Origin: Candidatus Sericytochromatia bacterium
GTDB lineage: Bacteria > Cyanobacteriota > Sericytochromatia > UBA7694
DNA: 64,000 bases
NCBI GenBank assembly: GCA_015272195.1
Contig: JACYMC010000023.1
Span: 5,352 to 69,351, forward strand
Reading direction: 5' to 3'
Shown: in pieces, positions 12,879-40,069 of the stretch
Layout: every line of letters starts with the position of its first letter
Position numbering within the stretch: position 1 is the first letter of the stretch
Program-made: the position numbers and the translations under genes
The notes under the pieces: generated by a model
The model's input: only the letters and a program-made list of their open reading frames with translations
The model's database searches: none
What the model was told of the DNA's origin: nothing

Positions 12879-12926
12879 GATAGGGATCCTTTGAAGTTCT
12901 TATTCTGCTTCATATTATTCATCATT

Positions 12927-13865: not shown

Positions 13866-13923
13866 GCTGCACGTCTTTCTTTCTTAACATCTCTTTACAA
13901 ATTACAGCAAGAAGTGTGGCGGG

Positions 13924-15174: not shown

Positions 15175-15300
15175 AAGCTGTATATTAACCGATTCTCCAG
15201 CCAGACAAAAGTCAGAGGCATTTTCACAATCCCCGCTCAAGAATGCTATCATGCATAAAATCCGAAAACTAAAAATCAAGCACAATCAGGTGAGGTTTTA

Positions 15301-16173: not shown

Positions 16174-16215
16174 TTTGGATTCAGGGATCGCAACATGCGC
16201 TCGAAAAACTGAGAC

Positions 16216-16644: not shown

Positions 16645-16655
16645 AGCGATTGGCT

Positions 16656-17552: not shown

Positions 17553-17557
17553 AATGG

Positions 17558-18076: not shown

Positions 18077-18089
18077 CTTTCGTCCTCCT

Positions 18090-21000
18090 TTAATTGCTAG
18101 CCACTAATTTATCTTGTACCACAGATATACTCTGCTTGGTCTGATCATAAGTCAAGGTCAGCGCACCTTCCAGACTCATGCCGTTGGGCAGACTGGTCTG
18201 ACTGGTGATCGCCAGCTGGTTGAGATTACTCAACAGACCCAGCTTGAAGATATCCCGGTATTTTTCCTGATTCAGAATCCCAATCAAAATTTCCACAAAA
18301 TTGTTGGCCGCCTTATTTGAAGAACCCGTTGTTTCTTTTGAGCTCGACAGCCTGGCAAGTTTGCTTGCGTTATCGTTTTCCACCGACAAAGGCACCATTC
18401 GCGTTTGCCAGCGGCTCTGAACCTTCAGTGTTCCTGGCCTGACAAACTCTGGCGCATATTTGGCTGCAGCCAGGTCATCATAGCCCGTAATCACTTTGGC
18501 ATTGATCAGCGCGTCAACCTCAGGTTCGTTACCCGTACCGGTTGTGACACGGATCCCTTCTCGGTAGTTATTGACACCTGCTGAGTTGATAAATGTCCCG
18601 TCTGAGGCCTGAATCGAAATGGTATTCAGACCTTCCTGCAGATAAGGCGCCATATCAAAGGTGTAATTGACATCACGTATATCGGCAGGGTAAGCGCCGC
18701 CAATAAGCGGAGCCGTTGGCGTCACCAGCACTTCGCGGCCATTAATAAAAATCTTGGGCTGGTCGTTCCCTGTACCATAATGAACCCCTGTCAGGTCAAT
18801 ACTGACATTGAACGCTTTTTTGGTATAGGTCGGACGCACCCGGCCTGTGGCGTCGGTGATCCAGTTGGTCGGGTTCTCCAATTCCAGCAAATCATCTGGC
18901 TTCAGGTGAAAGGTATTGCGGGCCTGGATCACCTGTCGGGGAGAGTTGAGCTTGCCGTAACCCGCAGCTCCGCCCACAACTTCGTCATCGTCATAGCTGT
19001 AAAGCGTGTCTTTGACCAATGGGAACCAGATAAAGCCGTTATCAGGATCACCGGCATTTGTTGTGGCCAGCAGCTCTGACTGGTACCAGTCCGTGGGCAC
19101 GGCATTGGCTGCATTGATCTCCATCACTGACGGTGGCTCAAAGTCAACGATATTGCGACTCATTTCATAAGAGCGCATCACGCCTTCATACTTGCCGATT
19201 TCAAAGCCCCCCAGAATGGGGTTGGCTTTTTTGCTGTCATTGCTGACCACGTTCAGGCCATTAAAGCTATGAATCTTGTGCAGCCCCTGAATAAACTCCC
19301 CGTTAAAGCTGTCGGTCATATTGCCCGTAGAGCGGGAAATACTGTCATTGGGATTATTGGCAGTCGGGTCAGCGTCGGGAACCCAGTCATAGCTTTTGCT
19401 CGCGTCCACCGCATTCGAGCGGGCCAGACCACCATGCACGTACATTTTACCGGTACCGTCACGCTCAATGTCATTAACCGCCGTGGTCAGGTCGTCGACG
19501 TTGGTGCGCTTGTCATTGTTAAACTCCGCTGTGCGGGTTTCTACAATGTAATGGTTAAAGAACAGCGAGCTGGTAATTTGCCCTCTGGCATTCACGCGGG
19601 TCACGTCATCCACAAGCTCGGTCTCATCAACCGTAATATCGGTGTTCAGGCCGCCGCCTGCCTCAGTCGACCGCTCCCCCATATCGACCTTGTGCTTAAA
19701 CACGCTGCCCAGCTGAATATTGGTATCAAAGAGCCGCACGGCACCGCCGCCACCGGCCTGAACTTCAACATCATAGGCCTGATTGGCGGGTGGGGTTCTG
19801 AGAATAGTTCCCTGATACCCACCGGCAGGGTCAAAGACAGGTAAGTTTACCGGGGCGTCAAGTGTTGCCACACCATTAGCATCTATAGCAATAATCGTGC
19901 GTGTTTCATCAATCGCAGGCTGTGGCGGCCCGGTATCCTGAATTCGAATTTGTGTACTTCCGGGCACGAAAGACGGAGGTATTGTGCCTAGCCGAACTTC
20001 AATAAAGTTGGGTGGAGGGCCTGCTTCTGCAGGCGTCACAGTCACAGATGTGGGAATCTGTGACGCCATCTCCAGCAAGGTGACCGGTCCAGACAAGGTG
20101 ACCACACTGCCAGCAATGCTCTGAATCACACGGGTCTGACCATCAATCGTCAGGGTATCACCAGCGCTCATGCCTGCCGTAGAGCCAAGTGTCAACTGAA
20201 TATATTCAGGCGGGTCATTAGGCGCTCCTGCTGCAGCAGAGACTGTCGTGGTGGTATTAATGGTTGATGTTGAGGTAACCTGCCGGGCATGACTCTGATA
20301 CACAATCCCGTTTTCAAGATAGGTACCCACCACATTACCGCCGACACCATTGGTATTGGAAAACAAGCCTTCATAGACATAGGTGCCACTCTGAAAGATC
20401 AGGCCGTCCACAATCTGAACTTCCCCGTCTGATACATCGGCGTTGTTACGCCAGAGGCGTGTACCCACGTCTGTGGCCACAAGATCCTGATTCAGATTAA
20501 GCTCGTTTTTCTGAGACTGGGTTAAACCCGCGGCGTTCCAGCTCTCTGGATCCAGCCAGGCTTTCTGACGGTTGACCACGGTAGTGTAATCCTGGCTGGT
20601 GCCTGAGCGCTCCAACTGATAACCTTCAGTTGGATCCGTGCTGACCCAGGCCACGCGCTGCCCCGCATCATCTCCCGAAAGGGGATAAGTCTGGTTGCGA
20701 CTGTCAGGTACATCCGTCAGATGGACCAGTTCACCGTTGATCAGGTAGTTGTCATTGCCCGCTTCGTCTGAGTTGGCCGTATAACCCACGGCGTAACTGT
20801 ACTGAATCTCACGCGGTGCAAAGTTGTACAGATAGTTGACCGTAGACCAGAAGGCCCCTGTATTAAAAGTGGTTGTTTTCTGTTCCAGCTTCTGGTTGAA
20901 GTAGGTTGGCGGGGGCGGCCCCCCTGTGATCAGAGAGGTAATACCCTGCAAAAACCCAAGAAAGCCTGGAACAGGTGCAGGCTCAGGCGGATCGTCTTCC

Positions 21001-21635
21001 ACGCGCATGGTGACAAAAATATCACCGCTGACATTGCCTGCAGCCGTGGCACTGTCTGTCAGAGAACGAAACTCAACGTTGCGGCTTCCGGCCAGCGCAC
21101 GGCCATAGCCAAAGTAACCATCATCAGCAGCGACAATCCCGTTTAAACCGTCCTGAAGATTGCCAGAATAGCCCACAGGCGCACGCCAGATGTCATTGCC
21201 ATCGTTGTCTGTCCCAAAAACCATGCCACGCTGGTCAGTGGGTCTGACACCCAGGTCTTCAAAGCCCGTCATACCTGCAATGCCTTCAATAATTTGTGCG
21301 TTATCATTGCCGTCCAGCACAACGTCTGCGCGCAGATTGGTTGCAGCACCTTCACCAATTTGCTGGGAGGTGGACACATTGAGCAGATCGGCATAGGCTT
21401 CCTGCAGTTGTTTGGTCAGCTCATTCAGGCGGTTCTGCATTTTGGCGCGATACTGATCGTTAAAAGCCTTTTCCCATTGATAATCGAGAGACGAGCGCAA
21501 CACAAAAGCGGTTTCAAGCGTGGAAGGGGTAAAGCTGCCACCCGCAACCGGCTTACTCGCCAGGCGCAATGTCGGGGATTTATTGCTGGTCAGGTTCATG
21601 GCCTGAGTGCCCACGTTAAATGCAGAAAAGCTCAT
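18090..21635 (-). CDS. Giant protein of unrecognised family (1181 aa); N-terminal helical 'DQYRAKMQNRLNEL' motif shared with operon paralogues; Gly/Thr/Asn/Asp-rich centre
   Basis: Uninterrupted 3.5-kb ORF co-directional with its neighbours. No signal peptide. The internal plus-strand ORFs are short antisense artefacts. Confidence 0.6.
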   Translation of the reverse strand: MSFSAFNVGTQAMNLTSNKSPTLRLASKPVAGGSFTPSTLETAFVLRSSLDYQWEKAFNDQYRAKMQNRLNELTKQLQEAYADLLNVSTSQQIGEGAATNLRADVVLDGNDNAQIIEGIAGMTGFEDLGVRPTDQRGMVFGTDNDGNDIWRAPVGYSGNLQDGLNGIVAADDGYFGYGRALAGSRNVEFRSLTDSATAAGNVSGDIFVTMRVEDDPPEPAPVPGFLGFLQGITSLITGGPPPPTYFNQKLEQKTTTFNTGAFWSTVNYLYNFAPREIQYSYAVGYTANSDEAGNDNYLINGELVHLTDVPDSRNQTYPLSGDDAGQRVAWVSTDPTEGYQLERSGTSQDYTTVVNRQKAWLDPESWNAAGLTQSQKNELNLNQDLVATDVGTRLWRNNADVSDGEVQIVDGLIFQSGTYVYEGLFSNTNGVGGNVVGTYLENGIVYQSHARQVTSTSTINTTTTVSAAAGAPNDPPEYIQLTLGSTAGMSAGDTLTIDGQTRVIQSIAGSVVTLSGPVTLLEMASQIPTSVTVTPAEAGPPPNFIEVRLGTIPPSFVPGSTQIRIQDTGPPQPAIDETRTIIAIDANGVATLDAPVNLPVFDPAGGYQGTILRTPPANQAYDVEVQAGGGGAVRLFDTNIQLGSVFKHKVDMGERSTEAGGGLNTDITVDETELVDDVTRVNARGQITSSLFFNHYIVETRTAEFNNDKRTNVDDLTTAVNDIERDGTGKMYVHGGLARSNAVDASKSYDWVPDADPTANNPNDSISRSTGNMTDSFNGEFIQGLHKIHSFNGLNVVSNDSKKANPILGGFEIGKYEGVMRSYEMSRNIVDFEPPSVMEINAANAVPTDWYQSELLATTNAGDPDNGFIWFPLVKDTLYSYDDDEVVGGAAGYGKLNSPRQVIQARNTFHLKPDDLLELENPTNWITDATGRVRPTYTKKAFNVSIDLTGVHYGTGNDQPKIFINGREVLVTPTAPLIGGAYPADIRDVNYTFDMAPYLQEGLNTISIQASDGTFINSAGVNNYREGIRVTTGTGNEPEVDALINAKVITGYDDLAAAKYAPEFVRPGTLKVQSRWQTRMVPLSVENDNASKLARLSSSKETTGSSNKAANNFVEILIGILNQEKYRDIFKLGLLSNLNQLAITSQTSLPNGMSLEGALTLTYDQTKQSISVVQDKLVASN

Positions 21636-21743
21636 GGGGTATGCTCCTTGGATAGATGTTCACTCGTCTCTTATCCTGCGAGAGGCCTATCTTCTGTCTG
21701 AACTAAAAGAAGTTTTAATATAAAGCCAACACAGAACTAACAA

Positions 21744-21768
21744 GCCCGAACAGTTGTCCTGTTCGGGC
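21744..21768 (-). terminator. Perfect 10-bp stem hairpin (GCCCGAACAG-ttgtc-CTGTTCGGGC) between the two giant genes; candidate partial terminator or attenuator
   Basis: Lies 14 nt downstream of the 1559-aa gene's stop on the transcribed strand. Followed by a T-rich stretch (TTGTTAGTTCTGTGTTGGCTTTATATT). Confidence 0.3.
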
Positions 21769-21781
21769 TGAAGTCGGTCAC

Positions 21782-24700
21782 CTATTTGGCTGGCGTGGCC
21801 GGCGGGCGCTTAAAGGCGTAAAAGGAGCTGAGATAAATCTCCGCCATCGCCCGGTTGGTGTTTTTAAAGACATCATAAGTACCGACCAAGCCGGGTTCAC
21901 GCAGCAGATTCTGGGTTACAGAGGTGCCGTCTGCACGGGTCACAGTGCGCGTCCCTGCAATTTCTTCCTGCCGGCGTTCTTCGTAATCACCAAAATTGAC
22001 CGGCACTGCCGCTGAAGTCGCGGCAGTGCCGATCTGACGAAACTTAATCCGAATCGATGAGGTGACACCGCCGCCTGTGGTCGCATTGGCCGAGGCCGTC
22101 AGGAACATATCGTCCAAAAATCCGTTGTTAAACACGTCGCGGTATTCTCTGACCAGTTGGGCATTGGAGCCATCTGATTTGAGGTGCATATGTTCATAAA
22201 GCACTCTGGTCAGGGGGTTTTCAACCCCGATGGTGCTTTCACCCAGAGCCTGAGTCAGATTGTTCTGGTCAACGCGGGCCAGCAGCATGCGACCGCCCAG
22301 CACAGGCGCCAGCGCCTGGTTGGCTGTGAGATTGATCGCTGTGCTGTCGAGGCCTTTGACATTCAACGTATAATCGTAGCGACGATCATAGTACTTTTGC
22401 CCGCCGTGAAGTTGCAGAATCACGTTACTGCGGCCATCCACATCACCAGTGACCCCCACACGCACGGTGTTTGCGTTGACCGCAGCAGCCCCTTTGGCAG
22501 TGGCGTCCGCTGCGTTAATAAAGGTGCCAAAGTATTTATCGTGATAGTAGCCTGTCCGGAAGCTCTGCAGATTCAGGGGGGATGCACCATCATAATTGCG
22601 ACCCACAATGCGGCCATGCGAGCCCACATAGCGATCAATATGGGTGGTAACATTGGGCGTCAGACCACTGAGACCCTCACTCACCGCACCGTTATAGTCC
22701 ACCACATTTTTACGCACATAAACTTCGTTGATATCGCCCATGCCCGTATCGTCCCAGAAACCACGTTTGATATCCCAGTTGTCATCATAACGAGTGGTAT
22801 CACCCTCATGACGACTCAGCTCATGGGCTCTGCGGCCATCGATGCCAAAGGCGGCGCCATAACCCTGGCGGCCGGCAGCGCCGTCAACACCAGTTAAGAA
22901 GGGTTTATAACGACGGGTATTGGCCATACCGTTAAGCACCTGGTTAGGCAATTCAAAGGAACCCGTGCCCCACTGGGCCAGCGCACCGATAGCGCCCAGC
23001 TGACCGCCGTCGCGGGTGGTATTGTAGTCATAAGCAAACAGTTTTTTCTCGTCTTCAATAAAGTCATAACCTTCGGCTGTCAGACTGCTGCTGCTGATGC
23101 GATCGGAGGTCACAAAACCTCTTTCATTCTGATCGCGCAGCAGCAGATCCCACATCATGTTTTCATTCAATTGCTGCTGATAAGAGGACAGCATCAGGTC
23201 CAGCACGCTCAATACCACAGCCCAGCCCATACTGGGCGGGCCCGCATTCAGCCTGCCCGCAGCCGCGAAAATGGCTTTGTTGAGAAACTTCATGATCTCT
23301 TTGCCCGTGAGGGCCAGCATCCGCAGGGTATCCATATTGGCGATTTCTTCGTTCTGGTGCGTGCCAGTCCAGTAAGAATAACTCAGATCATTGAGCTGAA
23401 ACTGCGACAGAAAGGCTGCTGTCGAGAAGAATGCACCCGTATCCAGCTCACGGGCTTCGCCCGCATTCATACTATGACGCTGTTCACCACCAAAGACTCC
23501 ATCTTCGCGTAAATTATAATCATTGATAGTATATGAGTTGATACCCAATAAACCCTTGGCCTGATCCAGAAAACCGCCTAAATCAAAAATGCCAATGAGC
23601 TCGGGCATTTTTTGAAGGGTGGACCAGGCTGTTTTTTCGGTAAAGTGGTATTCACCGCGCATGCCATAGCTGTCCATGGCATAACCACCGCTGGTGGCAT
23701 AAGAATAGGCCGAAACGCTATCGATCACCTCATGCTTCATGGCATCCAGAAATTCATGCATATAATCCGTCAGAATATCGTAAGAAGCGGCACCATATGT
23801 GGTCATGGGCAGGTTCAAAAAGAACACACCCGCCATGGGAATGGGAATCGGAATCGGGATGTTAAGATCTGCGTGAAAGCCTCCGATCCCGACGTTGGGG
23901 AAGTAACTGATATCGTCCTTACTGGCGCCACCAATATTGGCCAGAATCCCCAATGACAGGTTCATGGCCTGAAGGGCGGGACCAATATCCCCCCCCTGAC
24001 CGCCGGAGTTATCCATCAGGTCCTCTACCTTGCCAATCGTACCAATGGCTGAAGTGTGGCCCCAGTAAATGCCGCCAACCCCGGCACCAATGGCTGTGCC
24101 GCTGAAACTGTAAGCCGTCGAGGTGCCGTCCAGGTCAACAATCCCCTTGGAGTCAGAGCCGCCGCCCACATGAAAGAAAGGGCCGCCCAGCAGGTTATTG
24201 GCCACATCGTCCAGACGACCCAGCGCCAGACCGGTTGCAATCGCTTGCAGGGCAAAGCCTTCGATCGGCGGAGAAAGGGTCATGGCTGAGATCATTGAGC
24301 TGCTTTTGGCGTAAGGGTCATACCACAAAACAGGCGAAACCTTAAGATGCGAGGAGATGGTCTCAGCATCATATTTGACTGGCGCAATGTCTTTTGTGCC
24401 CGGTGTGGCGGTTTCAGCACCTCCGGGCACAAAACCCGGCGCGTAGTCCCATTGACGTCCCACAAAAAGATTGCTGATCACATCCATGGTGTTGCCACCA
24501 AAGGCGCTTTTGGTGGTATCAACCAAATCGTCTGTACCGTTATCATCATTTACATCCGGCTGGCCATTGGACTCAGCTGCACCTACAGGAATAGGTACAT
24601 AAAGTTTAGAATCACCAATACTTGTGCGCGGGGTTGGCGGTGGCGGCGCCGGCGGGCCAGGCGTGCTGACCGGGGGCAAAGCCGGTGGCGCAGGAACACT

Positions 24701-26461
24701 GCCGACCGGGTCTGCCATCATTTCGAGACGCTTATTGAGAATCGAATAAATACTGGCTTCTGAACTGGGGGTTTTGGGACTGCTATAGTCTGCACCAACC
24801 TGGTATACAGAGTTGATGGTACCCTCAAAGGTACTGGGTGGCGTGTAGTAATAGCCATAGGGAACCATACCGCTGATAGGGCTGACGTTGTCCAGATAAT
24901 TACTCGGGGCATCAGGATGTGGGTTGACTGGCGGCAGCGGAGGGGTACCGGGCGGATAGTTACTGGGCGGGGAGGTAGGCGCTGTCACCGAGCCTTTGGC
25001 CAGCTGGTCAATGCCTGAGAACACCTGGTCCATAATCTGATCATAGGTATAGTCAGGATTCTTTGCTTTGATGTCACCCGCATTATCCACATACGCTTTA
25101 TAAGCAGCTTCTATCTGCGCTTCACGCTTCTGGATCTGACGGGCCTCATACCAGGAGTCTAGAAAACCCTGCTGATAAGGCGGCAAATGCCCTTTGCTGG
25201 CATTAAAATCCTGTTCATCCAGGGTCGCGCCCAAAGGCTGGGCCAGCTTGGGATTCAGCGTGATGCCGCCGACCGTACCGGAGCCATAAGGAAACGAGCC
25301 TGGATCCGGTGCAAACAGACGCTGATTAGACACACCTGGATCAGGGTCAACAAAGCGAATGCCGTTGTTTAAGGTGTAAATACCGCTGCCAGGCGATGTT
25401 TCAGTAAAGTCGCCATTCGTCATGCCATGACCACCTGCTACAATGGCGTCGCGCTGGGCTGTTGTAAATTGCATGGTCGTTGGATTGCTGTTACTCGTAA
25501 TAAAAGTCGGCAACAGAGCAAAATCCGTTGATGTCATGCCATTAAAGGTTTCAATATAATAACGGTTACTGGCATTGGAACGCACAAAGTTACGGGTATC
25601 TGTCGAGGGCGGCACGTTCATGTTCTTGGCAATTTCTTCAAACCAGGCGTTGCTGTTAACGCCGGGGTCATTCAGATCGTAAGCGTAAGGGGATGGGACT
25701 GGTCCTGCATTGGTGCGCCAGAGGTCATAATACTGGTTGTCAGCAGCACCGTCGCTGGTCACATAGCCCGTGCTGTCAACAGGTGCTTTGTAGTGAGGCC
25801 CCTTAAAAGTGGGGTAGGCCACAGGATCATCTGCTGGTATCAGGCTGCCATTAATTTGAACTTCTGCAGTACCGTCCCCGTCCATATCCTGAAGAGGGGC
25901 CTGGCTGTTGATGTAGCGGCGAATATCGTTGTAAGCATCACTTGTACCGCCATACGCCTGCTTATCGGGGCCGAACCAGTCCGGGTGGGCGTACAGATTG
26001 TTGTCTATTTCTTCCACTTCGTTGGGCGGGTTGTCAATCACGGCACCTGAATAAAAAGCCAGGGGCGTTTCGGCGCTGATATCATTGCGATCGCGGTTGG
26101 CATTGGGCGCCCAGCGTTCGTCGGGGCGCATGGGCGCATAGATACTGTTTTCAAGGGTGCGCACATAAGCCCGGTTCAGCTTTTTTTTGAGTGCTTCAGC
26201 GCGCAGGCTCAAAACGGCACGGTACTCGTTATACCAGGTCTGGGCAAAGCTGTTCTGGGCATCGCGGTCATAGGTGGTCTGATACTCGCCAGAGGTGAGC
26301 TGAAACATGCCCTGGGTACGGTTTTCGAGCCGTAAAAAATTGCCATTGGGACTGGCATAATTCGACAGGACAGCCTGCAAGCCCTGGCCAATATCCCGCT
26401 GACCGCCTCCCAGAAAATCTCTGAAAGACTGTCCTGAACTTCCAAGCTGCCCGATTGACAT
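21782..26461 (-). CDS. Giant protein of unrecognised family (1559 aa); N-terminal 'YNEYRAVLSLRAEAL' and C-terminal 'AEIYLSSFYAF' motifs shared with the tandem paralogues; Pro-rich 'PPPTPRT' and 'PIPIPIP' segments
   Basis: Uninterrupted 4.7-kb ORF, no signal peptide, Gly/Asn/Thr/Tyr-rich. Confidence 0.6.
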   Translation of the reverse strand: MSIGQLGSSGQSFRDFLGGGQRDIGQGLQAVLSNYASPNGNFLRLENRTQGMFQLTSGEYQTTYDRDAQNSFAQTWYNEYRAVLSLRAEALKKKLNRAYVRTLENSIYAPMRPDERWAPNANRDRNDISAETPLAFYSGAVIDNPPNEVEEIDNNLYAHPDWFGPDKQAYGGTSDAYNDIRRYINSQAPLQDMDGDGTAEVQINGSLIPADDPVAYPTFKGPHYKAPVDSTGYVTSDGAADNQYYDLWRTNAGPVPSPYAYDLNDPGVNSNAWFEEIAKNMNVPPSTDTRNFVRSNASNRYYIETFNGMTSTDFALLPTFITSNSNPTTMQFTTAQRDAIVAGGHGMTNGDFTETSPGSGIYTLNNGIRFVDPDPGVSNQRLFAPDPGSFPYGSGTVGGITLNPKLAQPLGATLDEQDFNASKGHLPPYQQGFLDSWYEARQIQKREAQIEAAYKAYVDNAGDIKAKNPDYTYDQIMDQVFSGIDQLAKGSVTAPTSPPSNYPPGTPPLPPVNPHPDAPSNYLDNVSPISGMVPYGYYYTPPSTFEGTINSVYQVGADYSSPKTPSSEASIYSILNKRLEMMADPVGSVPAPPALPPVSTPGPPAPPPPTPRTSIGDSKLYVPIPVGAAESNGQPDVNDDNGTDDLVDTTKSAFGGNTMDVISNLFVGRQWDYAPGFVPGGAETATPGTKDIAPVKYDAETISSHLKVSPVLWYDPYAKSSSMISAMTLSPPIEGFALQAIATGLALGRLDDVANNLLGGPFFHVGGGSDSKGIVDLDGTSTAYSFSGTAIGAGVGGIYWGHTSAIGTIGKVEDLMDNSGGQGGDIGPALQAMNLSLGILANIGGASKDDISYFPNVGIGGFHADLNIPIPIPIPMAGVFFLNLPMTTYGAASYDILTDYMHEFLDAMKHEVIDSVSAYSYATSGGYAMDSYGMRGEYHFTEKTAWSTLQKMPELIGIFDLGGFLDQAKGLLGINSYTINDYNLREDGVFGGEQRHSMNAGEARELDTGAFFSTAAFLSQFQLNDLSYSYWTGTHQNEEIANMDTLRMLALTGKEIMKFLNKAIFAAAGRLNAGPPSMGWAVVLSVLDLMLSSYQQQLNENMMWDLLLRDQNERGFVTSDRISSSSLTAEGYDFIEDEKKLFAYDYNTTRDGGQLGAIGALAQWGTGSFELPNQVLNGMANTRRYKPFLTGVDGAAGRQGYGAAFGIDGRRAHELSRHEGDTTRYDDNWDIKRGFWDDTGMGDINEVYVRKNVVDYNGAVSEGLSGLTPNVTTHIDRYVGSHGRIVGRNYDGASPLNLQSFRTGYYHDKYFGTFINAADATAKGAAAVNANTVRVGVTGDVDGRSNVILQLHGGQKYYDRRYDYTLNVKGLDSTAINLTANQALAPVLGGRMLLARVDQNNLTQALGESTIGVENPLTRVLYEHMHLKSDGSNAQLVREYRDVFNNGFLDDMFLTASANATTGGGVTSSIRIKFRQIGTAATSAAVPVNFGDYEERRQEEIAGTRTVTRADGTSVTQNLLREPGLVGTYDVFKNTNRAMAEIYLSSFYAFKRPPATPAK

Positions 26462-26493
26462 AAAATAAGCTCCTTTGTCTTAAGTTTCCAGCG

Positions 26494-27669
26494 CTAGCAA
26501 TGATAAAAGGCGCTGAAGCGATCGATTGAAAGATTGATGCGTCCCCCCAGATCTGGACGATCAGGGTTTTCCGGAACGAAGTTAAGAAACACACTGGCCT
26601 GGGCCTGAGAGCCCGAAGGTAGGGAGGAAGTTGATGCCACCTGCATATCACTGAAGAAGCCGTTTTTCTCAGACAAACGAAAAATATCGCGCAGCAAATT
26701 ACGCTGATCTAACTCATAAATGGCATCATACAGCACCTTTTGAAACTGATTTTTAGCCCGGCCTGTCGCATTAAAAGCTTCATAGCTTTGGGTCTCATTG
26801 ACCCAGTCCAGATTATTCATGTTTCCTGTATCAGCAGCTCCAGCCACGTTTTGAGGCAGGTTATTATTGGTATAGACAATGTTCTGGGCATTAGAACGGT
26901 AGTTAGGGATGGAGGGGGCTGGCGGAGTATTTGCCACATCAATAAAACGATAGCGGTTCTGATGGGAGATAAAACCGCCACCCACTTCGCGATAAGCCAC
27001 AGTACGCCCCCCATGATTCACTTCAAGGGAGTCGATCAAGCCTTCGGTTTCGGCTTCCATATGAAAAGACTGCTGAATAGTAGCCGTACCAAAAACACGC
27101 ACAGTGGCTTCATCGCCATTGCCTGCACCCAGACTGCGAAAGAAAATCGCATCGGCGGAAGCGTCCGGGGTGACGCGATTCCTCCCATCAAAGTGGGGTA
27201 CTCCGACATAAGGTTCAGAAGTTACAGAGCCCCCGGCAGGGTTGACCCCCTGGGCATAACCCGTCATAAAGTTATAGGCCACACGGGCAGCACCAGCATC
27301 CTGCAAACGATCGGTAAATCCCTGAGAAGCGGAACGATCATTCCAGGCCGCACGGGTTCCTTCTAAAGCTGTATCCAGGTCACGCGTCAAAGCAGCCGTC
27401 AAATCAGTAATCAACTGCTGAATTCGTGAGCGCAGCAGAGCCTGGTATTCAAACAGAAAGACGGTACTGTTGTCGTTTTTTTGATCTTGCTGCATCAGCA
27501 CATTCAAATAGGAGCTGGTGTAATCCAAAAAGCTGGAGGCTGTATCGGGATTGGCCAACTGCCGATATCTATCCAGATTGCTGGACATATCCGCCAGTTT
27601 AAACGAGGTGGGGTCCTGTTGAAACTGCTGTTGCATATTGTTGCTGCCCAGACCAAAGGTAAACGTCAT
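26494..27669 (-). CDS. Paralogue A (391 aa) of the conserved-termini family
   Basis: Shares 'VFLFEYQALLRSRIQQLITDLTAALTRDLD', 'DAGAARVAYNFMTGY', 'KNQFQKVLYDAI', 'SSLPSGSQAQASVFLNF' and '...FSAFYHC' with the adjacent 332-aa protein. Confidence 0.6.
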   Translation of the reverse strand: MTFTFGLGSNNMQQQFQQDPTSFKLADMSSNLDRYRQLANPDTASSFLDYTSSYLNVLMQQDQKNDNSTVFLFEYQALLRSRIQQLITDLTAALTRDLDTALEGTRAAWNDRSASQGFTDRLQDAGAARVAYNFMTGYAQGVNPAGGSVTSEPYVGVPHFDGRNRVTPDASADAIFFRSLGAGNGDEATVRVFGTATIQQSFHMEAETEGLIDSLEVNHGGRTVAYREVGGGFISHQNRYRFIDVANTPPAPSIPNYRSNAQNIVYTNNNLPQNVAGAADTGNMNNLDWVNETQSYEAFNATGRAKNQFQKVLYDAIYELDQRNLLRDIFRLSEKNGFFSDMQVASTSSLPSGSQAQASVFLNFVPENPDRPDLGGRINLSIDRFSAFYHC

Positions 27670-27730
27670 ATAAAAGACTCCTGCATCGTCATTGATTCAA
27701 AGCACTGCCTGTCATGTGGATGTGCGTTGC

Positions 27731-28729
27731 TTAGCCCGAAGCATAATAGGCCGTCATCTTATCGAGAGAAATATGGAGGTTACCGCCATCCTGGGCACCT
27801 TCAAAACTCAGATTAAAGCTTGCCTGGACCTGTGATCCCGTGGGTAGACTCGAGCTGGCAGCCACGACCAGATTTTTAAACAGGCCTGAACTCAGCACCG
27901 CTCGGTATTCAACACTTGAGACCGCATCAAATAAAACTTTCTGAAACAAATTCTTGGCATTTCGTGCACGGGCACCTGCACCAAGTGGCCCGCTGAAACT
28001 ATTATCCAGAACATTGTGATCGGCTGTAGGCGCTGCGTCATCCGCATTTGTATTTGTATAAATAAAAGTGGGGGCCGCACCGCGCAAGTCACCAATTTGA
28101 AGCGTGTCAATCACCCGACTGTTACCGTTTGCGGGCAAGGGGCCAACAGTGACCAGCGTTGCCGTACCTGCAGCTCTCAGCGTGGGTGTGCCCCCACCAT
28201 AAGCGACACCTTCAAAAGTACCGTCAAAACCTTCTGCCTGCTGGACAGAGCCAGGCACAGGCGGCGGCCCAGGAACGAAGGCGCTGCCTGTTAAAGCGGG
28301 TGTGGCACCGGCAGACACGGTGGAAGAGCTCATCCAGCCCATCATAAAGTTATAAGCTGTACGGGCCGCACCGGCATCTGCAACTGTGGGCGTTGAGAGA
28401 CCGTTCATGGCGGGTTTGGGCGTACCGCCCCAGCGTGGGTTGGCCGCACTCATCGCCACATCCAGATCAGAGGCCAGGGCGTTGCTGAGCTGGGCAATCA
28501 GGGTCTGAATACGGGAATTCAGCAGGGCACGGTATTCAAACAGGAAGATCAGGTTGTCGTCATTCTGCTTATCGGTTTCTTCTTTTTTGAGGATTGCGCG
28601 GCTGGTAGGGTTCCAGACAAAGCCACTTGAGACACTGGCCATGCCCGTTGCCGTTGTGGTCAGACGCTGATTGTGCACATCGGCAGTTGTGAGCTTGACG
28701 CCCAGTTGCACGTTGCCAATTCCGGCCAT
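27731..28729 (-). CDS. Paralogue B (332 aa) of the conserved-termini family
   Basis: 'LIFLFEYRALLNSRIQTLIAQLSNALASDLD', 'DAGAARTAYNFMMGW', 'KNLFQKVLFDAV', 'SSLPTGSQVQASFNLSF', '...MTAYYASG'. The middle region is divergent. Confidence 0.6.
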   Translation of the reverse strand: MAGIGNVQLGVKLTTADVHNQRLTTTATGMASVSSGFVWNPTSRAILKKEETDKQNDDNLIFLFEYRALLNSRIQTLIAQLSNALASDLDVAMSAANPRWGGTPKPAMNGLSTPTVADAGAARTAYNFMMGWMSSSTVSAGATPALTGSAFVPGPPPVPGSVQQAEGFDGTFEGVAYGGGTPTLRAAGTATLVTVGPLPANGNSRVIDTLQIGDLRGAAPTFIYTNTNADDAAPTADHNVLDNSFSGPLGAGARARNAKNLFQKVLFDAVSSVEYRAVLSSGLFKNLVVAASSSLPTGSQVQASFNLSFEGAQDGGNLHISLDKMTAYYASG

Positions 28730-28786
28730 AATTTTATATTCTCCTGTTTAAATATCTTGTCTATCTCAAAGGACAACGCCCTGAAA

Positions 28787-29455
28787 TCAGGTGTTGTTAC
28801 GGTAAGCTGCAGAACCATTAACGGTTGTATCGTAATGAAACATGCGACTGATGGATCCGACTGAGCCCCAGTTATAAAACGAAGCATAGTTAATGGTCGA
28901 ACCATCCTGACGGTTATAAAAGCGCTGATCCGTCCAGCGAGGCGTAAAGGAATCACGATACATAATCGCACCACGACCACCCATGGCCGAGCCTTCTTCG
29001 GCGCCATCAAAAAACTCGCCATTGCCGGTAAAGCCTGCCTGAACAGTCCACTGCGCAAAAGTAGCAGCAACAGCACGCCATTGCAACTGAGCCTCCTGAC
29101 GCTTGAGAATAAATTCCGTGATGGACCGGATCACGTCGATAATATCGCGCGTATCGGTTTTACTGAGGACTGCTAGAAAGGTACTGACCGCTGAAGAAAC
29201 GAGTTTCATGCCGCCTCCCGCCGTCATCTCAGCCAGAGAGCCCTGGGCATCCACCTTTTTGCGGATTTCTGCAGCCAAAGCATTGGCGGCCTGAAAGCGC
29301 GACTGGATCAGCTGCTCAGCGTTATCCTGACCTTTGATGATATTCTGGCCCAGCGCTTGATTTACCGAGTTAAAAAAGCTCGGGATCTTTTCTTTGACGT
29401 CTTCCTTGGAGCGAGCCGCCAGAGCATCTGAGCGCATTGCTTGGATTGCGGGCAT
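28787..29455 (-). CDS. Hypothetical protein (222 aa), part of the novel operon
   Basis: Helical N-half, Gly/aromatic-rich C-half ('FYNRQDGSTINYASFYNWGS'). Co-directional with short gaps to its neighbours. Confidence 0.45.
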   Translation of the reverse strand: MPAIQAMRSDALAARSKEDVKEKIPSFFNSVNQALGQNIIKGQDNAEQLIQSRFQAANALAAEIRKKVDAQGSLAEMTAGGGMKLVSSAVSTFLAVLSKTDTRDIIDVIRSITEFILKRQEAQLQWRAVAATFAQWTVQAGFTGNGEFFDGAEEGSAMGGRGAIMYRDSFTPRWTDQRFYNRQDGSTINYASFYNWGSVGSISRMFHYDTTVNGSAAYRNNT

Positions 29456-29475
29456 AAAACAAACCTCTTATAGAA

Positions 29476-29949
29476 TTAGATAAAGGGGTTGGCATTCAAT
29501 GCCTGTACCGCTTTATCAGAGCCAACGCGCATGATATTCAGGCGCTTCATATCTTCTTCAACCGCTTCAAGTTCAGCATTGGCTTTGCTGATATCGAGCA
29601 GCTTGGTGATCACGTTACCGACACCATTCACAATATCGGCCCAGCCGGACTTTTTGCTGTCACCGCTCGGACGGGTGCTGTTGACGACCGTGCCCAGCAG
29701 AGACACCACAGCCGCTGCGGCAGCAATTTTAGCCGCTTTTTTACTTGCATCAGCAGCAATTTCTTTAAATCTGAGGTCAGCCGCTTTGAGATCAAGATCA
29801 GCTTTTTCTTCGGCGCGCGCGTCCTTTTCGGCCATCACACTGGTGGTGATCAGGTTGTTGTTGCGCAGCATGCGCTGTTGTTCAACAGCAGTCAGCCCAA
29901 GTTCTGAAACAGCGCGGGTCATGTTTCCGGCAGAAGCCCATGCAGTCAT
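29476..29949 (-). CDS. Hypothetical coiled-coil protein with a central hydrophobic (possibly TM) segment; first gene of the novel operon
   Basis: 157 aa. 'KKAAKIAAAAAVVSLLGTVVN' hydrophobic stretch. An AAGGAAG Shine-Dalgarno sits about 10 nt upstream of the ATG. Confidence 0.45.
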   Translation of the reverse strand: MTAWASAGNMTRAVSELGLTAVEQQRMLRNNNLITTSVMAEKDARAEEKADLDLKAADLRFKEIAADASKKAAKIAAAAAVVSLLGTVVNSTRPSGDSKKSGWADIVNGVGNVITKLLDISKANAELEAVEEDMKRLNIMRVGSDKAVQALNANPFI

Positions 29950-30098
29950 AATTCAATACTTCCTTTACAATGAGATGAAGACTCGTTACTTATCTGTGCA
30001 GGGGTCTTTCGGCTGAAGCCATTTAATTCTGGCTTAACATAAAAAACACAGAAAAAAACTTTTTTTTAAAACATTAAGTCTGCGCAGGACCTGATTCA

Positions 30099-30156: not shown

Positions 30157-33066
30157 ATGCACAGCCATATTCATATTAAAAATGCCAATGAGCACAACCT
30201 GAAACAGGTCAGCCTGCATCTGCCGCGCAACCAGATGATCGTTTTTACCGGGGTCAGCGGTTCAGGCAAATCGAGCCTGGCTTTTGACACCATTTTTGCC
30301 GAAGGTCAGCGGCGTTATGTGGAGTCCCTCTCAGCCTATGCGCGCCAGTTTCTGGGCCAGATGCAAAAACCGGACGTTGAAAGCATCGAAGGGCTCTCGC
30401 CGGCCATCTCGATCGATCAGAAGTCCACCAGCCACAATCCCCGCTCCACGGTCGGCACGGTGACGGAGATCTATGACTATCTGCGCCTGCTCTATGCCCG
30501 CATTGGCATCCCCCACTGCCCGGACTGCGGACAGGCCATCCGCTCCCAGAGTATCGATCAGATCGTGGATCAGGTCACAGCCCTACCAGACGATACCCGA
30601 CTGTATATTCTGGCCCCCCTGATCCGAGGGCGCAAAGGCGAGTACAAAAGCCTGCTGGATAACCTGCAGCGCGAAGGCTTTACCCGTGTCAAGGTGGACG
30701 GCGCTTACCGGGAGCTGGACGAAGACATTCAGCTCAGCAAAACCCACAAACACGATCTGGATCTGGTGGTGGACCGCCTCAAGCTCAAATCAGAATCCCA
30801 CACCCGCCTGACCGAATCCCTGCAGCTGGCGCTCGATAAAGGTGAGGGACGGGTACTGGTAGAAGCCATGGACGGGAGTTTCTCACAGCTGTATAACCAG
30901 AATCACGCCTGCCCGGACTGCGGTTTCAGCTTTCCGGAAATTTCACCGCGTCTGTTTTCATTCAACAGCCCTTTTGGGGCCTGTGCTGACTGCCATGGCC
31001 TGGGCTCACGCCAGGAAATCGCCGTCGATAAGATTGTGCCCGACCCTGGCCTGAGTCTGAACCAGGGCGCCATTCGCCCCTGGGCCCGCAGCCTGGATCA
31101 GTCGGGCGGCTCTTATTTAAAGACCCTGCTGACCAGCCTGCAACAAGAGCTCCATTTTTCGCTGGATACCCCCTTTGAAAAGCTGCCCAAAAATATTCAA
31201 AAGGTCCTGCTGCATGGCCACGACAGCCGCATCAAGGTCGATTACCAGAGCCAGAGCAAAGGGCAGATGCAGTACAGCTTTTACACCCGCTTTGAAGGGG
31301 TAATTCCCCGTTTGCAGCGCCTGTATGCTGAAAGCAACTCCGAAGCCAGCCGCAGTGAAGCCGAGCGCTACATGGAAAAACTGCCCTGCGACAGCTGCCA
31401 CGGCCAGCGCCTGCAGCCCGCCAGTCTGGCGGTCAGGGTACAGGGCCACAGCATCGCTGACGTGACCGATCTCTCGCTGGAAAAATTTGCCCGCTGGCTC
31501 GAAAACCTCGATCTGAACGCCCGCGAACGCCTGATCGCGGAGCTGATTCTACGCGAGCTCAAAGAGCGCAGCAGCTTTCTGCTGAACGTGGGGCTGGACT
31601 ATCTCAGCCTGAACCGCAGTGCCAACACGCTGTCAGGCGGTGAGGCCCAGCGCATTCGCCTGGCCACCCAGATTGGTTCGGGCCTGGTGGGCGTGCTGTA
31701 TATTCTGGATGAACCCAGTATCGGCCTGCACCAACGCGATAACCGCCGCCTGCTGGATACGCTCAAGCGCCTGCGGGATCTGGGCAATACCCTGATTGTG
31801 GTCGAGCATGACGAAGACACGATCACCGAGGCGGACTACCTGGTGGATATCGGCCCCCTGGCCGGCCGCCACGGCGGGCAGATTGTGGCCCAGGGCAATC
31901 TGGAAACCCTCTGCAACACCCCGGAATCGCTGACCGGTCAGTATCTCAGCGGTCAGAAGCGCATTCCTGTGCCTGCCAAACGACAGGCTGGTAACGGCAA
32001 AGCCCTGACAATCCGGGGCGCGCGCAAAAACAACCTCAAAAACATTGATGTCAGCATTCCGCTCGGTCAGCTGATCTGCGTCACCGGCGTCAGTGGCTCA
32101 GGCAAATCGACCCTGATCAATGAAATTCTGGCGCCTTACGTGGAGCATCACCTGCACCGCAACCAGCCCCGGCCGCTGGATGTGGACGCTGTCGAAGGCC
32201 TGGAGCATCTCGACAAGCTGATCCGCATTGATCAGTCTCCCATCGGGCGCACGCCCCGCTCCAACCCGGCCACCTATACGGGCTTGTTTACACCCATCCG
32301 CGAACTCTTTGCCCAGAGCGTGGAAGCCAAAATCCGGGGCTATAAACCCGGACGCTTCAGTTTCAACGTCAAAGGCGGACGCTGTGAATCCTGCCAGGGC
32401 GACGGCATGCTCAAGATTGAAATGCACTTTTTGCCCGATGTCTATGTGCCCTGCGAAGTCTGCAAAGGCCAGCGCTATAACCGCGAAACCCTGGCCGTGC
32501 TCTGGAAAGGCGCCTCGATTGCCGACGTGCTCAATATGACCGTCGAAGAAGCCCTGGAGCACTTTGACCAGATTCCTGCCATCCAGCGCAAGCTGCAGAC
32601 CCTGATGGATGTCGGCCTGAACTATATCCAGCTGGGCCAGGCCGCGACCACCCTCTCCGGCGGCGAAGCCCAGCGGGTCAAGCTGGCCACCGAGCTGAGC
32701 AAGCGCAGCACGGGGCAGACCCTCTATCTGCTGGATGAGCCCACCACCGGCCTGCATTTTGCTGACGTGGCCAAACTACTGGAGGTCATGCTGCGCCTGG
32801 TGCGCAAGGGCAACACCGTCCTGGTGATTGAGCATAATCTGGACGTGATCAAGGTCGCCGACCACCTGATCGATCTGGGACCGGAAGGCGGCCATCGGGG
32901 CGGACAGGTGCTGGTGCAGGGCACGCCCGAAACCGTGGCGGCCCATCCAGAGTCTTTTACCGGCCAGTTTCTGAAGCCTTTGCTTAACACAAAAGCATCT
33001 GCCAAAAGTAAGCCCACTGCAGCGCCTAAAAAAAAGGTCAGCCGTAAAAAAGCGCGCTCAGCCTGA
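30157..33066 (+). CDS. uvrA: Excinuclease ABC subunit A
   Basis: 969 aa. Two ABC modules ('[10 protein letters not shown]', 'LSGGEAQR' twice, '[10 protein letters not shown]') plus zinc-finger cysteines 'CPDCG...C', 'CESCQGDG'. Confidence 0.95.
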
Positions 33067-35073
33067 AGCAGGAAACAAGCTGTTCAGGAAATCCTGCATG
33101 GCAGCGGCCGCGCGATGATCTTCCCAGATGCGGGCGGCGTTGTTGCGGAGCCGCTGCTGAATAGTCTGGCGCAGGTCAGGGCTGTTGAGCAATTCTATTA
33201 CGCGGGTCATATAGGCTACGGGGCTTTCAACCACGCCTTCAGGGTAGCCTATCTGCTGGCAAAGCGCTGCCTGAATGCGTCCGCGCAGGTACTCCCCCGG
33301 CCAGGTCACCACGGGCAGCCCCCAGGCCAGCATTTGATAGGCCGTATTGCCTGAGCCATAATAAAAGGTATCCAGCCCCACATCGGCAATCTGAATCAAA
33401 CCCAGAAAGTCCGCGTTAGCCAGCGGTGGAAAAATCCAGATACGCGGCATCACATCGGGCATGACCTCAGCAAAACGACGGCTGAGTTCCTCGGCCTGCC
33501 AGTCTTCTTTGGCGGCCACCAGCGCCAGTTGGGCTGTGGGCACAGCCCGCAGCACGGTCGCCAGCACCCGGTCAAAATCAGGATGAAACTTCAACAGGTT
33601 TTGCGCACAGAGCAGAACCGGCGCCTCAGGATCCAGGCCAAAATCTGCCCGGCTGCGAGGGGGCTCAGGGAAAACGGTCTGCATGGGCAATGAAGGGAGA
33701 CAGGGCCAGCAGATCAGTTTTTCGCTGTAATGCTGCTGGGCAGACGGGGACTCCAGCAGCGTGGAAGAGAGAAAGTAGTCAATTTGCTTTAAGCCACTGG
33801 TGCCGACGTTGATCCAATTGCTCAGCTGCACAGGGGCCATGCGCAGACTGGCCAGGGCATATTGCTGAAACTGCCAGCTGGGCTCGGTAAAAAAAGCCAG
33901 CTGTAAATGCGCTTCGCGCATCAAGGTGGCTGCTGCCTGCAGGTTTTCGGGCAGTACATAAAAGGCTTTTGCCTTTTGGAAACGATGGGGACTGTCAGGC
34001 TGCTGCCAGTGGGCTGGCAAGTGCCCCTGCACAAAGACATGCAGCTCAAAACGCTCATCAAGTTGCTCCAGCAGGTTGCCCAGGGCCATATAGACCATAA
34101 CGGCACTGCCCGGCGCCAGAACCAGCCCCACACGGATGGGCCCGGCCTGCGCCCGCGCTTCGGGCAAAGGCGGTAGCTGCGGCAGATGATAATAACAGAG
34201 CTGGGCAAAAGCCTGCCACAGCGGGCGCAGCGATACAGGGGCATAGTTAAACTGAGCCATTTGCCGGTGCAAAACGGTCAGGCAAAAAAAATGTTCCGGG
34301 CTGGCCGCGCTTTCAACAGACTGAAGCCCAGGCTGGGTCAGGCTGCTCAGTCCAAACTGCAGGGCCTGATAATCGCGCAGCCAGGCCTGCGCTTCGGTTT
34401 TAATGGGCGAGTGGCAAAGCGTGGCCTGCAGCTGCCAGAAAGCGGGCCAGCGACTGTGCGGCAAGACTTCCTGATACATCTGCCGGGCTGCGGCAAAGCG
34501 GCCGTGCTGCGTCAGCAAAAGCCCCCCCATCATGGCCAGCAGATCCGGGCTGGTGCCATGCCAGCGCGACAGAGCCTGTAAACAGTCCAGCGCTGTTTGC
34601 AGCGCCCCCCGATCGGCCAGCAGCTGAAACAGCGCCAGGCAGGTTTCCACACTGAGATCACCCTGTTCCAGGGCCTGCAAATAAAGTGACAGCGCCAGAT
34701 CACTCAGCCCACAACTTTGACAGTCTGCTGCCAGCTGACGATAAAAAAGCCCGTCGGCCACAAAAGTCGGTTGCTGCAGGCAGCGCAGCAGAAGCTGTAC
34801 AGCACGGGGCAGATGGCCCTGCTGACGGGCCAGATGTCCTGCCTGCTGCAGAACATTCGGATCACGCGGGGCCAGATAGAGCGCCCGGTTCAGGGCCTGC
34901 TCGGCCTCAGGCAGCTCATCCTGCTGCAGATGCCATTCAGCCAGCTGTCGCCAAAAAGCGGGGTGCTGGGCTGAGCGAGCATATAAACGGCGCAGAACAC
35001 GTTTCTGATGGGCGCCTGTGCTGTTGTTCAGATGACGCAGCCAGCGCCGGGGAAAATCAGCGGCATTTCTCAT
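33058..35073 (-). CDS. TPR repeat protein with a C-terminal GT41 (O-GlcNAc transferase / SPINDLY-like) glycosyltransferase domain
   Basis: N-terminal TPRs. C-terminal '[30 protein letters not shown]...[10 protein letters not shown]...[24 protein letters not shown]' is characteristic of the COG3914 OGT-like family. Confidence 0.7.
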
Positions 35074-40052: not shown

Positions 40053-40069
40053 TCCCTGCTTAACAGGAT

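Follow-up and report, generated by a model that had tools for sequence, protein, structure and literature searches.

What do two neighbouring genes encode whose products share both of their ends while their middles have drifted apart? The question is raised by genes A and B in a 64,000-nucleotide stretch of contig JACYMC010000023.1 (assembly GCA_015272195.1, positions 5,352 to 69,351 of the forward strand) from a Candidatus Sericytochromatia bacterium, which we refer to as the window. An earlier reading of the letters alone, the original prediction, had described the two genes as tandem paralogues with an unrelated centre, a pattern ascribed to diversifying selection on flagellin- or pilin-like proteins or to two subunit types of one polymer. 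Our results establish that A and B belong to a group of four paralogues, A, B, X and Y, which carry a common split core and are encoded side by side in one operon, and that both the family and the operon are undescribed and show no detectable kinship with known systems of any kind.

A split core common to four genes of one operon

Gene A (27731..28729, minus strand, 332 amino acids [aa]) lies upstream of gene B (26494..27669, minus strand, 391 aa) at a distance of 61 nucleotides (nt); coordinates, strand and lengths of the two open reading frames (ORFs) had been read correctly. Their pairwise alignment by BLASTP is beyond chance (E=1e-36, 32% identity over 340 columns), and the three motifs originally quoted as shared are found in both translations (ADAGAARTAYNFMMG in A and QDAGAARVAYNFMTG in B, KNLFQKVLFDA and KNQFQKVLYDA, and SSLPTGSQVQASFNLSF and SSLPSGSQAQASVFLNF, respectively). 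In A, an N block (aa 1-131, nt 28337-28729) and a C block (aa 256-332, nt 27734-27964) enclose a central beta region (aa 132-255, nt 27965-28336), and B is built in the same way from an N block (aa 1-137, nt 27259-27669), a central region (aa 138-300, nt 26770-27258) and a C block (aa 301-391, nt 26497-26769). Aligned on their own with hhalign, the N blocks match at E=7.6e-28 and the C blocks at E=6.2e-22. Together with the column entropies discussed below, this bears out the architecture of conserved ends around a faster evolving, indel-prone middle. We collected 53 orthologues of A (49-93% identity, query coverage 86-100% and mostly 100%), none of which contains a Pfam domain, and 47 full-length orthologues of B (39-94% identity).

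The two genes that follow on the same strand, X (21782..26461, 1559 aa) and Y (18090..21635, 1181 aa), are giant members of the same family, recognized as ORFs with a profile match at both ends. When aligned with the profile of A and B by hhalign, X matches with its N-terminus (residues 1-130, E=7.7e-5) and, in collinear order, with its C-terminus (residues 1406-1467, E=2.8e-5), and Y matches with its C-terminus (E=2.5e-7, probability 93%) and its N-terminal helix (E=7e-4); all of these matches pair N-terminus with N-terminus or C-terminus with C-terminus. The alignments of X and Y comprise six sequences each from related loci. A hidden Markov model (HMM) of A and B moreover recognizes the giant ORFs of loci that were not part of its training, namely an X-type ORF in locus L024 (9.6e-13) and Y-type ORFs in L024 (2.8e-10), L027 (1.1e-13) and L028 (3.4e-12), and a search of 1.84 billion representative proteins with the same profile retrieves proteins of 591-1704 aa by way of their first ~120 and last ~100 residues (E between 1e-11 and 7e-4). 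In addition, the B orthologue of locus L001 matches the C block of the window's Y directly in BLASTP (E=0.001), and the four proteins start alike, the set of N-termini being MAGIGNVQLG, MTFTFGLGS, MSIGQLGSSG and MSFSAFNVGT. On the strength of the profile-profile comparison, the HMM matches in independent loci, the library-wide search and the similar start motifs we conclude that the family has four paralogous members here, A, B, X and Y, built around one and the same split core. The notion of two distinct subunit types in one polymer may be plausible but is too narrow, as the terminal blocks are shared by four paralogues.

The core begins with an extreme N-terminus of the consensus M-x-F/I-S/T/G-x-F/L-G…, continues into a helix of ~55-60 residues with a [FY]EY[RQ]ALL motif and resumes behind the insert with the C-terminal helices and a three-stranded sheet (KNxFQxVL…YRxxxxxGLFxxxxxxxxSSLPxGSQxQxS…). 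In A, B and their orthologues the C block terminates in (D/E)(R/K)x(S/T)AF(Y/F)HS. All four proteins have the [FY]EY[RQ]A[LV]L-like helix, the YRxxxxxGLFxxxxxxxx(S/T)(S/A)xxxG… block and a place in the operon: in X the helix block reads …WYNEYRAVLSLRAEAL… and the C-terminal block …EYRDVFNNGFLDDMFLTASANATTGGGVTSSIRIKF…SSFYAFKRP, in Y the helix reads …FNDQYRAKMQNRLNEL… and the C-terminal block …KYRDIFKLGLLSNLNQLAITSQTSLPNGMSLEGALTLTYDQ…QDKLVA (as well as …KYRDIFKLGLLSNLNQLAITSQTSLPNGMSLEGALTLTY…QDKLVA). What differs is the insert between the two halves of the core, which measures ~120 aa in A, ~160 aa in B and 1000-1300 aa in Y and X. X also contains proline-rich linkers and glycine-rich, moderately hydrophobic stretches at ~aa 690-890 and 1040-1075. 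Y carries at ~aa 490-541 (roughly nt 20013..20168) a module of ~30-60 aa (…GDxVxVxxGxxxxxxTxxSVxxxxxITFTP…) that is also inserted into the C-terminal loop of certain B orthologues and recurs in a 160-aa relative (occurrences: aa ~400-440 of B in L001, P0046 and P0156; 47% identity over 30 aa in BLASTP, E=0.005), which hints at shuffling among the paralogues.

The paralogues are embedded in an operon of eight genes and ~4300 codons, all on the minus strand. It opens with g1 (29476..29949, 157 aa), whose product is rich in alanine and has a single segment of moderate hydrophobicity (aa 71-92) and whose position is conserved in 26 of the 29 loci, the window among them, and with g2 (28787..29455, 222 aa), likewise conserved in position and marked by the motifs MxxIQxxRxxA… and …RDxxxPR…G.xG. 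Behind Y lie g7 (17558..18076, 172 aa), which encodes a glutamine- and alanine-rich protein and follows Y in every locus that is long enough, and the gene of a tetratricopeptide repeat (TPR) protein (16656..17552, 298 aa; TPR_1, TPR_2 and TPR_8, E down to 6e-43), found at the same place in L001, L004-L006, L022, L024 and L026. The latter protein has sub-threshold matches to the MamA, PilW and LcrH/SycD models and would be a candidate cytoplasmic chaperone or adaptor. The spacers in the operon measure 5-61 nt, except for that between X and Y, which measures 146 nt and contains a terminator-like hairpin (21743..21769, minus strand; 11-bp stem with seven G-C pairs, 13 nt past the stop codon of X, found by consensus scan), a possible internal terminator or attenuator. 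In the Blackallbacteria loci L002 and L003 an unrelated class Ib tRNA-synthetase gene (16013..17059) sits exactly between X and Y. The hairpin in the spacer and the foreign gene at the same point suggest two transcription units, g1 to X and Y to the TPR gene.

The order g1-g2-A-(B)-X-Y-g7-TPR does not vary among the 29 loci, of which the window is one and which represent at least three different genomic contexts. The number of small genes varies: A and B are both present in all loci of the window's clade, L027 has two small genes, and L006/L007, L022, L023, L024 and L028 have a single one. In the window's clade the operon is flanked by uvrA and sucD, whereas quite different genes flank it in L022, L024, L027 and L028; in L006 the upstream flank is a glyoxalase/ATP-grasp region. 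Since gene order is constant while the flanks differ among lineages, the operon moves as a unit. The family is very narrow: among the 1.84 billion proteins only 50 are matched by the A and B profile at E<=1e-3. The GTDB species representatives contribute 15 matches, and each of these bears the label Sericytochromatia, Blackallbacteria, Cyanobacteria UBA7694 or Cyanobacteriota, and the few named orthologue entries belong to Sericytochromatia, Blackallbacteria or 'Melainabacteria HGW-1'. The operon is thus restricted to Sericytochromatia and close relatives. Short metagenome contigs (L008, 905..3243; L009) carry more distant family members of 272-434 aa (P0140, P0141, P0143 and P0144) with 'AFWHS' or 'AFYHS' at the C-terminus, and no giant gene follows them on the same contig; L008 has an X-like N-terminal fragment at a distance of 2.5 kb, past two unrelated genes on the opposite strand.

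Searches of Pfam, NCBIfam, PHROGs and PADLOC with the eight operon proteins returned nothing significant or consistent except for the TPR protein, and a Pfam scan at E<=1 of 62 family members of the A, B and single-copy types gave nothing consistent either. The profiles A1, A2, g1 and g2, as well as X and Y, found nothing meaningful among PDB sequences: there was one chance-level match to a nicking endonuclease (E=0.015), and the matches of g1 were to engineered spike S2 constructs only and look compositional. Against Pfam g7 finds only DUF948, weakly and below threshold. A phage structural protein and an anti-phage defence system were rejected as candidates, as the single PHROGs match (0.002) is between a stretch in the interior of Y and a head-protein family, PADLOC gave nothing significant and the fold search of BFVD nothing. 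The literature that we searched on Sericytochromatia and Blackallbacteria in connection with pili, flagella or motility does not mention the family.

Proposed export and assembly, and the competing readings

If no known family explains these proteins, what can be learned from their composition and predicted structure? The seven products other than the TPR protein contain together one cysteine in 4014 residues, as against 48.6 expected from 22 other genes of the window (background 1.2%; P about 4e-20), and are enriched in asparagine, serine, threonine, glycine and aspartate, with the content of histidine halved. X and Y lack cysteine in all six orthologues examined of each, which come from six lineages, and g1 and g2 are free of it as well; the TPR protein, with three, is the sole member of the operon whose cysteine content is normal. 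A, B, X, Y, g1, g2 and g7 show no signal of the Sec, Tat, lipoprotein, pilin or sortase type, and a scan of the same seven proteins by regular expressions and hydropathy revealed no hydrophobic run within the first 40 residues.

Model structures of A and B generated with AlphaFold2 from alignments of the family share one topology, in which a poorly ordered N-terminus is followed along the chain by a very long helix, a short helix, four to five central strands, two to three helices and a three-stranded C-terminal sheet. The model of A (mean predicted local distance difference test [pLDDT] 79, predicted template modelling score [pTM] 0.73) places the long helix at residues 41-94, strands at 167-224, helices at 248-281 and the sheet at 287-328, with a pLDDT of 78-87 in the central beta region; that of B (pLDDT 72, pTM 0.70) has its long helix at 42-103. 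The extreme N-terminus combines strong sequence conservation with a pLDDT of 35-58, which fits a signal or a contact that would form only upon assembly. Foldseek found no significant match to either model in the PDB: the top matches are domains of helix and antiparallel sheet (best E=0.024, probability at most 0.54, TM-score normalized to query length at most 0.18), among them a weak echo of PAS/LOV-like alpha/beta folds that gives no evidence of homology or of a sensor function.

Among the known surface systems, the flagellar axial proteins offer one of the closest parallels. Flagellar rod, hook, junction, filament and cap proteins have common termini, and like FliC, FlgK/FlgL and FlgE/FlgG the present family comprises several paralogues in one locus with conserved ends and inserts that range from none to more than 1000 aa, free of cysteine, rich in asparagine, serine, threonine and glycine, without a Sec signal and with conserved termini that are poorly ordered in the model of the monomer. 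Small accessory proteins and a TPR protein, as potential chaperones, and nearby glycosyltransferases extend the likeness. Different from the axial proteins however, the last ~45 residues of the C block are predicted to form a beta sheet and not a coiled-coil helix, there is no match to Flagellin_N, Flagellin_C, Flg_bb_rod or Flg_bbr_C, and Foldseek detects no similarity; the cap-filament entry 9gnz_U appears with a probability of 0.14 and a TM-score of 0.16. Membership of the flagellin and axial family was rejected, as hmmscan of A, B, X and Y (E<=0.1) and of the 62 family members (E<=1) gave no match to PF00669, PF00700, PF00460 or PF06429, although the same Pfam library does detect flagellar domains in orphan FlgE-like genes of L027, L022 and L033. 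The 64-kb window and the 10-kb flanks of the 29 loci contain no gene of the flagellar type III export apparatus. The logic of co-assembly may thus resemble that of the flagellar axial proteins, to which the family appears unrelated in sequence and fold.

Other pilin-like candidates were discarded too. Type IV pilins likewise combine a long N-terminal helix (~54-62 residues) with a variable beta region behind it, but here, unlike in pilins, the C-terminus is conserved, and the seven proteins show neither a class III leader (G|F/M, Glu5) nor a hydrophobic N-terminal helix. For sortase or chaperone-usher pilins an N-terminal hydrophobic region, an LPxTG motif and a Pfam pilin match are all missing; the conserved 'SLPTGSQ' contains LPTGS and not LPxTG, and a membrane anchor does not follow it.

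We tentatively favour, at somewhat less than an even chance, the view that the four paralogues are exported and joined through the shared core into one lineage-specific surface assembly. A and B would supply its small subunits, X and Y large specialized parts with, for instance, an adhesive, anchoring or membrane-contacting function. Export in an unfolded state and a function outside the cell are suggested by cysteine-free products rich in asparagine, serine, threonine and glycine that lack a Sec signal, by conserved yet disordered termini, by the restriction of indels to certain regions, by the proline-rich linkers of X and by the TPR protein, and since the core is common to four co-transcribed paralogues, co-assembly into one structure is the simplest explanation. 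The products would leave the cell by a Sec-independent route and assemble on its surface, with the core mediating the contacts between subunits and the central beta region and inserts facing outward; the TPR protein and possibly g1, g2 and g7 could serve as cytoplasmic chaperones or accessory factors, and the nearby enzymes of glycosyltransferase family 41 (GT41) may glycosylate the subunits, which are rich in serine and threonine. That this amounts to a new kind of appendage or fibre, found in Sericytochromatia only, with A, B, X and Y as 'axial' subunits that polymerize via the split core after Sec-independent export, is possible, though we hold this stronger version to be distinctly less probable.

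Then again, several observations weigh against such an assembly. Major filament subunits are often very highly expressed, but the codon usage of A and B gives no sign of this (effective number of codons 47-48, G+C content at third codon positions [GC3] below that of flanking housekeeping genes). The depletion of cysteine is not universal, as the distant X orthologue of L027 has several cysteines. No export machinery is tied to the operon, the pilD-pilMNOPQ genes being conserved neighbours in the window's clade only. Finally, the two models are of moderate confidence, polymerization and an outward-facing centre are predictions, and the shared core could serve in export or anchoring instead of in contacts between subunits.

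The last point leads to the strongest competitor, doubtful in our eyes and yet to be taken seriously, according to which the shared N and C blocks form a common module for export, retention or anchoring in the envelope, comparable to those of type I-secreted adhesins or of surface proteins with SLH or CTD tags. The four paralogues would then be surface proteins in their own right, adhesins or S-layer-like, that take the same route but do not build a single polymer. Conserved ends around a variable passenger, the lack of cysteine and of a Sec signal would all suit this explanation, and sorting might be signalled by the invariant last residues, AFYHS-COOH. Like the present proteins, the cyanobacterial surface proteins and repeats-in-toxin (RTX) adhesins secreted by type I systems (e.g. 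SwmA, oscillin and LapA-type proteins) are large, acidic, free of cysteine and without a signal peptide, and terminal retention or secretion modules surround a variable passenger. As to a transporter, the window, L001 and L025 each have a gene for an ATP-binding cassette (ABC) exporter at a distance of 7 kb upstream, and in L027 (1..1980) genes for a MacB-type permease (FtsX) and a TolC-like outer membrane efflux protein, then one for a 271-aa lipoprotein, stand directly upstream of the operon. However, the ABC protein is a generic half-transporter of 543 aa, an HlyD-type adaptor was not seen, and the exporter neighbours vary among contexts, with the MacB and efflux genes adjacent in L027 only, so that an HlyB/HlyD/TolC set is not consistently linked; nor is there sequence similarity to the type I substrates. 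RTX adhesins as such were rejected, as tandem GGxGxD repeats are absent and the motif occurs once in X and not at all in A, B or Y. In addition, the N-terminal helix and the C-terminal sheet are modelled as parts of one chain in both single-chain models (pTM 0.70-0.73), which would fit a single domain better than two flanking signals.

Two further explanations appear unlikely, and to a similar degree. In the first, the operon encodes a secreted toxin or translocator for contact with prey or host, with co-secretion of A, B and Y alongside X, which would insert into a target or outer membrane, and with the TPR protein acting as a class-II-like chaperone. The hydrophobic glycine-rich stretches of X, a very weak match of g1 to the pore region of TcdA/TcdB (E=0.098) and the LcrH/SycD matches of the TPR protein speak for it, as does the predatory way of life of Vampirovibrio, from a related non-photosynthetic lineage of Cyanobacteriota (PMC6340189). 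These matches are all sub-threshold however, TPR models cross-hit freely, the operon contains no domain of a toxin, an enzyme or a type III, IV or VI secretion system, and its strict conservation and single-copy synteny are unlike what is seen in polymorphic toxin loci. In the second, the proteins build an intracellular or periplasmic structure, similar to a cytoskeleton, a sheath or an inclusion, and are not exported across the envelope. A recognizable signal peptide or secretion apparatus is indeed lacking, and a long helix with an alpha/beta core, as predicted, would be compatible with a cytoplasmic scaffold. The near-absence of cysteine, the depletion of histidine and the richness in asparagine, serine, threonine and glycine are nevertheless atypical of the cytoplasmic proteins of this genome, and proline-rich linkers and giant inserts tolerant of indels are typical of surface proteins.

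Sericytochromatia are the non-photosynthetic sister lineage of the oxygenic cyanobacteria and have been studied almost entirely for the origin of photosynthesis and respiration; they appear to have no cultured representative and their cell biology is essentially unknown, and our literature searches found nothing on their cell surface. Strict conservation, the lack of a known counterpart, the restriction to some 50 relatives and a composition like that of exported structural proteins make the operon a concrete candidate for a lineage-defining envelope structure, be it a fibre, an adhesin array, a sheath or a contact apparatus, and possibly for a new route of export. It provides defined targets for experiments and offers structural biology a family without detectable fold relatives. 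Even if its function were to prove mundane, four 'hypothetical proteins' have become one split-core family, which improves the annotation of the class.

The central regions and the age of the duplication

But are the centres of A and B truly unrelated, as had been stated for their ~120 central residues, and does selection drive them apart? Aligned by themselves with hhalign, the centre of A (132-255) and that of B (138-300) match at E=1.2e-8 (probability 95.6%, 46 columns), whereas controls with mismatched regions gave E=0.15-0.58. Judged by this alignment the centres are homologous, if divergent and rich in indels, and the claim that they are unrelated in sequence has to be given up. They have the motifs V-P-D…, R-V-G-T-A-T-x-x-Q (also given as R-V-G-T-A-T-I-x-Q) and x-I-D-x-L-x-V in common, G188 and D208 (numbering of A) are invariant and T189 is nearly so among the 62 aligned family proteins, and AlphaFold2 predicts equivalent beta strands in both. 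The difference in length is mostly due to insertions in B, e.g. ~GRTVAYREVGGGFISHQNRYRF....

Among orthologues the column entropy reaches 2.1-2.6 bits in the centre of A, with gaps in 11-41%, and 1.4-2.1 bits in that of B, compared with ~0.5-1.0 bits in the best-conserved terminal blocks and up to 1.5 in the remainder of the ends. Indels are concentrated in the centre and one C-terminal loop. We estimated the ratio of non-synonymous to synonymous substitution rates (dN/dS) by codon comparison with the two closest relatives, L025 (the closest) and L026. For A it is 0.085-0.094 over the whole gene, with 0.04-0.05 in the N block, 0.19-0.20 in the centre and 0.03 in the C block (0.04, 0.20 and 0.03 in comparison with L025). 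For B it is 0.02-0.04 over the whole gene and, in comparison with L025, 0.05, 0.06 and 0.02 in the N block, centre and C block, respectively. The values for g1, g2, X and Y (0.045-0.085) and for uvrA (0.03) lie in the same low range, and the genes of the operon are under purifying selection. The highest value of any 30-codon window, 0.44, falls in a loop of A (~codons 136-180) that is modelled with low confidence, a pattern of relaxed constraint in loops and not of positive selection.

These figures bear on the idea that A and B are subunits of the flagellin or pilin type whose exposed centre is under diversifying, antigenic selection. It is true that the centre is the most variable part and bears the indels, and that the ~45-codon loop of A has the top dN/dS. 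Nevertheless, the regional ratios are low, no 30-codon window exceeds the maximum given above, and searches by HMM, motif and fold found no match to flagellins or pilins. Conservation of the centres across species, which had been named as an observation that would speak against the idea, is found in B, with 12 invariant and 13 nearly invariant central positions among the 47 orthologues, which refutes the idea for B and weakens it for A. At the level of regions diversifying selection is therefore largely refuted, and we consider it very improbable.

A phylogenetic tree separates A from B, each as a clade of its own (bootstrap 180/200 and 200/200, respectively), and at 64-71% difference they are as far from one another as either is from the copies of other lineages; monophyly of A and B together has a bootstrap of 33%, and the deeper branching of the tree is without support. 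From the well-supported separate clades and the equal distances it follows that the duplication is old and that both copies have been retained. A recent tandem duplication that left one copy superfluous or in decay can be dismissed with near certainty, as nothing was found in its favour, both ORFs are intact, each is preceded by a Shine-Dalgarno-like motif, both have a low dN/dS and differ as strongly as stated, and both occur in all genomes of the window's clade that we have seen. Their order is kept in every locus of that clade that spans both positions with the exception of L012 (CAWCRG010000002.1), a metagenome-assembled genome in which B is split into 183, 82 and 323 aa and X into 942 and 700 aa, probably through frameshift errors of the assembly rather than by real decay. 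Two ORFs on the plus strand, 26740..27366 within B and 28016..28294 within A, were set aside as by-products, as it is the minus-strand frames that are conserved and under purifying selection.

Neighbouring genes and other features of the window

A type IV pilus cluster (8115..13865, minus strand) lies 3-8 kb downstream of the operon and encodes an A24 prepilin peptidase, PilM, PilN, PilO, a 253-aa PilP-like protein and a secretin; a pilin gene was not seen. Immediately upstream of pilD stands a C-methyltransferase-like gene (13924..15285). A link of the operon to this pilus was rejected, as the adjacency is confined to one clade and the prepilin motif is absent.

Orphan FlgE/F/G-like genes are found on contigs of the Sericytochromatia type (L027, 15116..16486, minus strand; L022, 354..1289, minus strand; L033, 9995..14014; L034, 10001..11771), where they are supported by PF22692 (E=1e-10) and by a Flg_bbr_C score of 22.8 bits against a cutoff of 23, and they have only 21 relatives in an index of 5.8 billion proteins. 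The operon is less than 10 kb away in only two of six contexts, which belong to distant lineages (2.7 kb in L027, 7.4 kb in L022); in L031-L034 these genes, sometimes tandem pairs, have housekeeping neighbours or the operon genes are out of reach, and the window contains none. We therefore did not count them as evidence of a flagellar link.

Beyond uvrA, two tandem genes on the minus strand (33058..37121) encode proteins that combine TPR with Glyco_transf_41 (Pfam) and thus resemble O-GlcNAc transferases. There are likewise two tandem copies in L025 and one in L001, and in L024 a TPR-GT41 gene (6594..8573, minus strand; E=1e-50) adjoins g1 in divergent orientation within an unrelated context, whereas the 10-kb flanks of L002-L005 and L022 contain none. 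A functional link of these genes to the operon may exist, though the distribution argues for it weakly.

The G+C content is 0.49-0.54 over the operon and the pil cluster (window positions ~8000..30000) as compared to 0.57-0.63 in the flanks, and GC3 amounts to 0.49-0.60 in this stretch versus 0.61-0.76 in most flanking genes, with 0.47 for sucD, which lies inside it. Amino acid composition, expression level or an ancient acquisition may account for the low values. A search of Rfam found no riboswitch or leader upstream of g1; the only match in the window is the bacterial class A RNA of RNase P (39666..40053, plus strand; 280 bits, E=1.6e-90). Beside an ATP-grasp gene and a FabH-like gene, a gene of the FtsZ family (2315..3256, plus strand) encodes a protein of 313 aa with Tubulin and FtsZ_C domains, which is probably shorter than a typical FtsZ.

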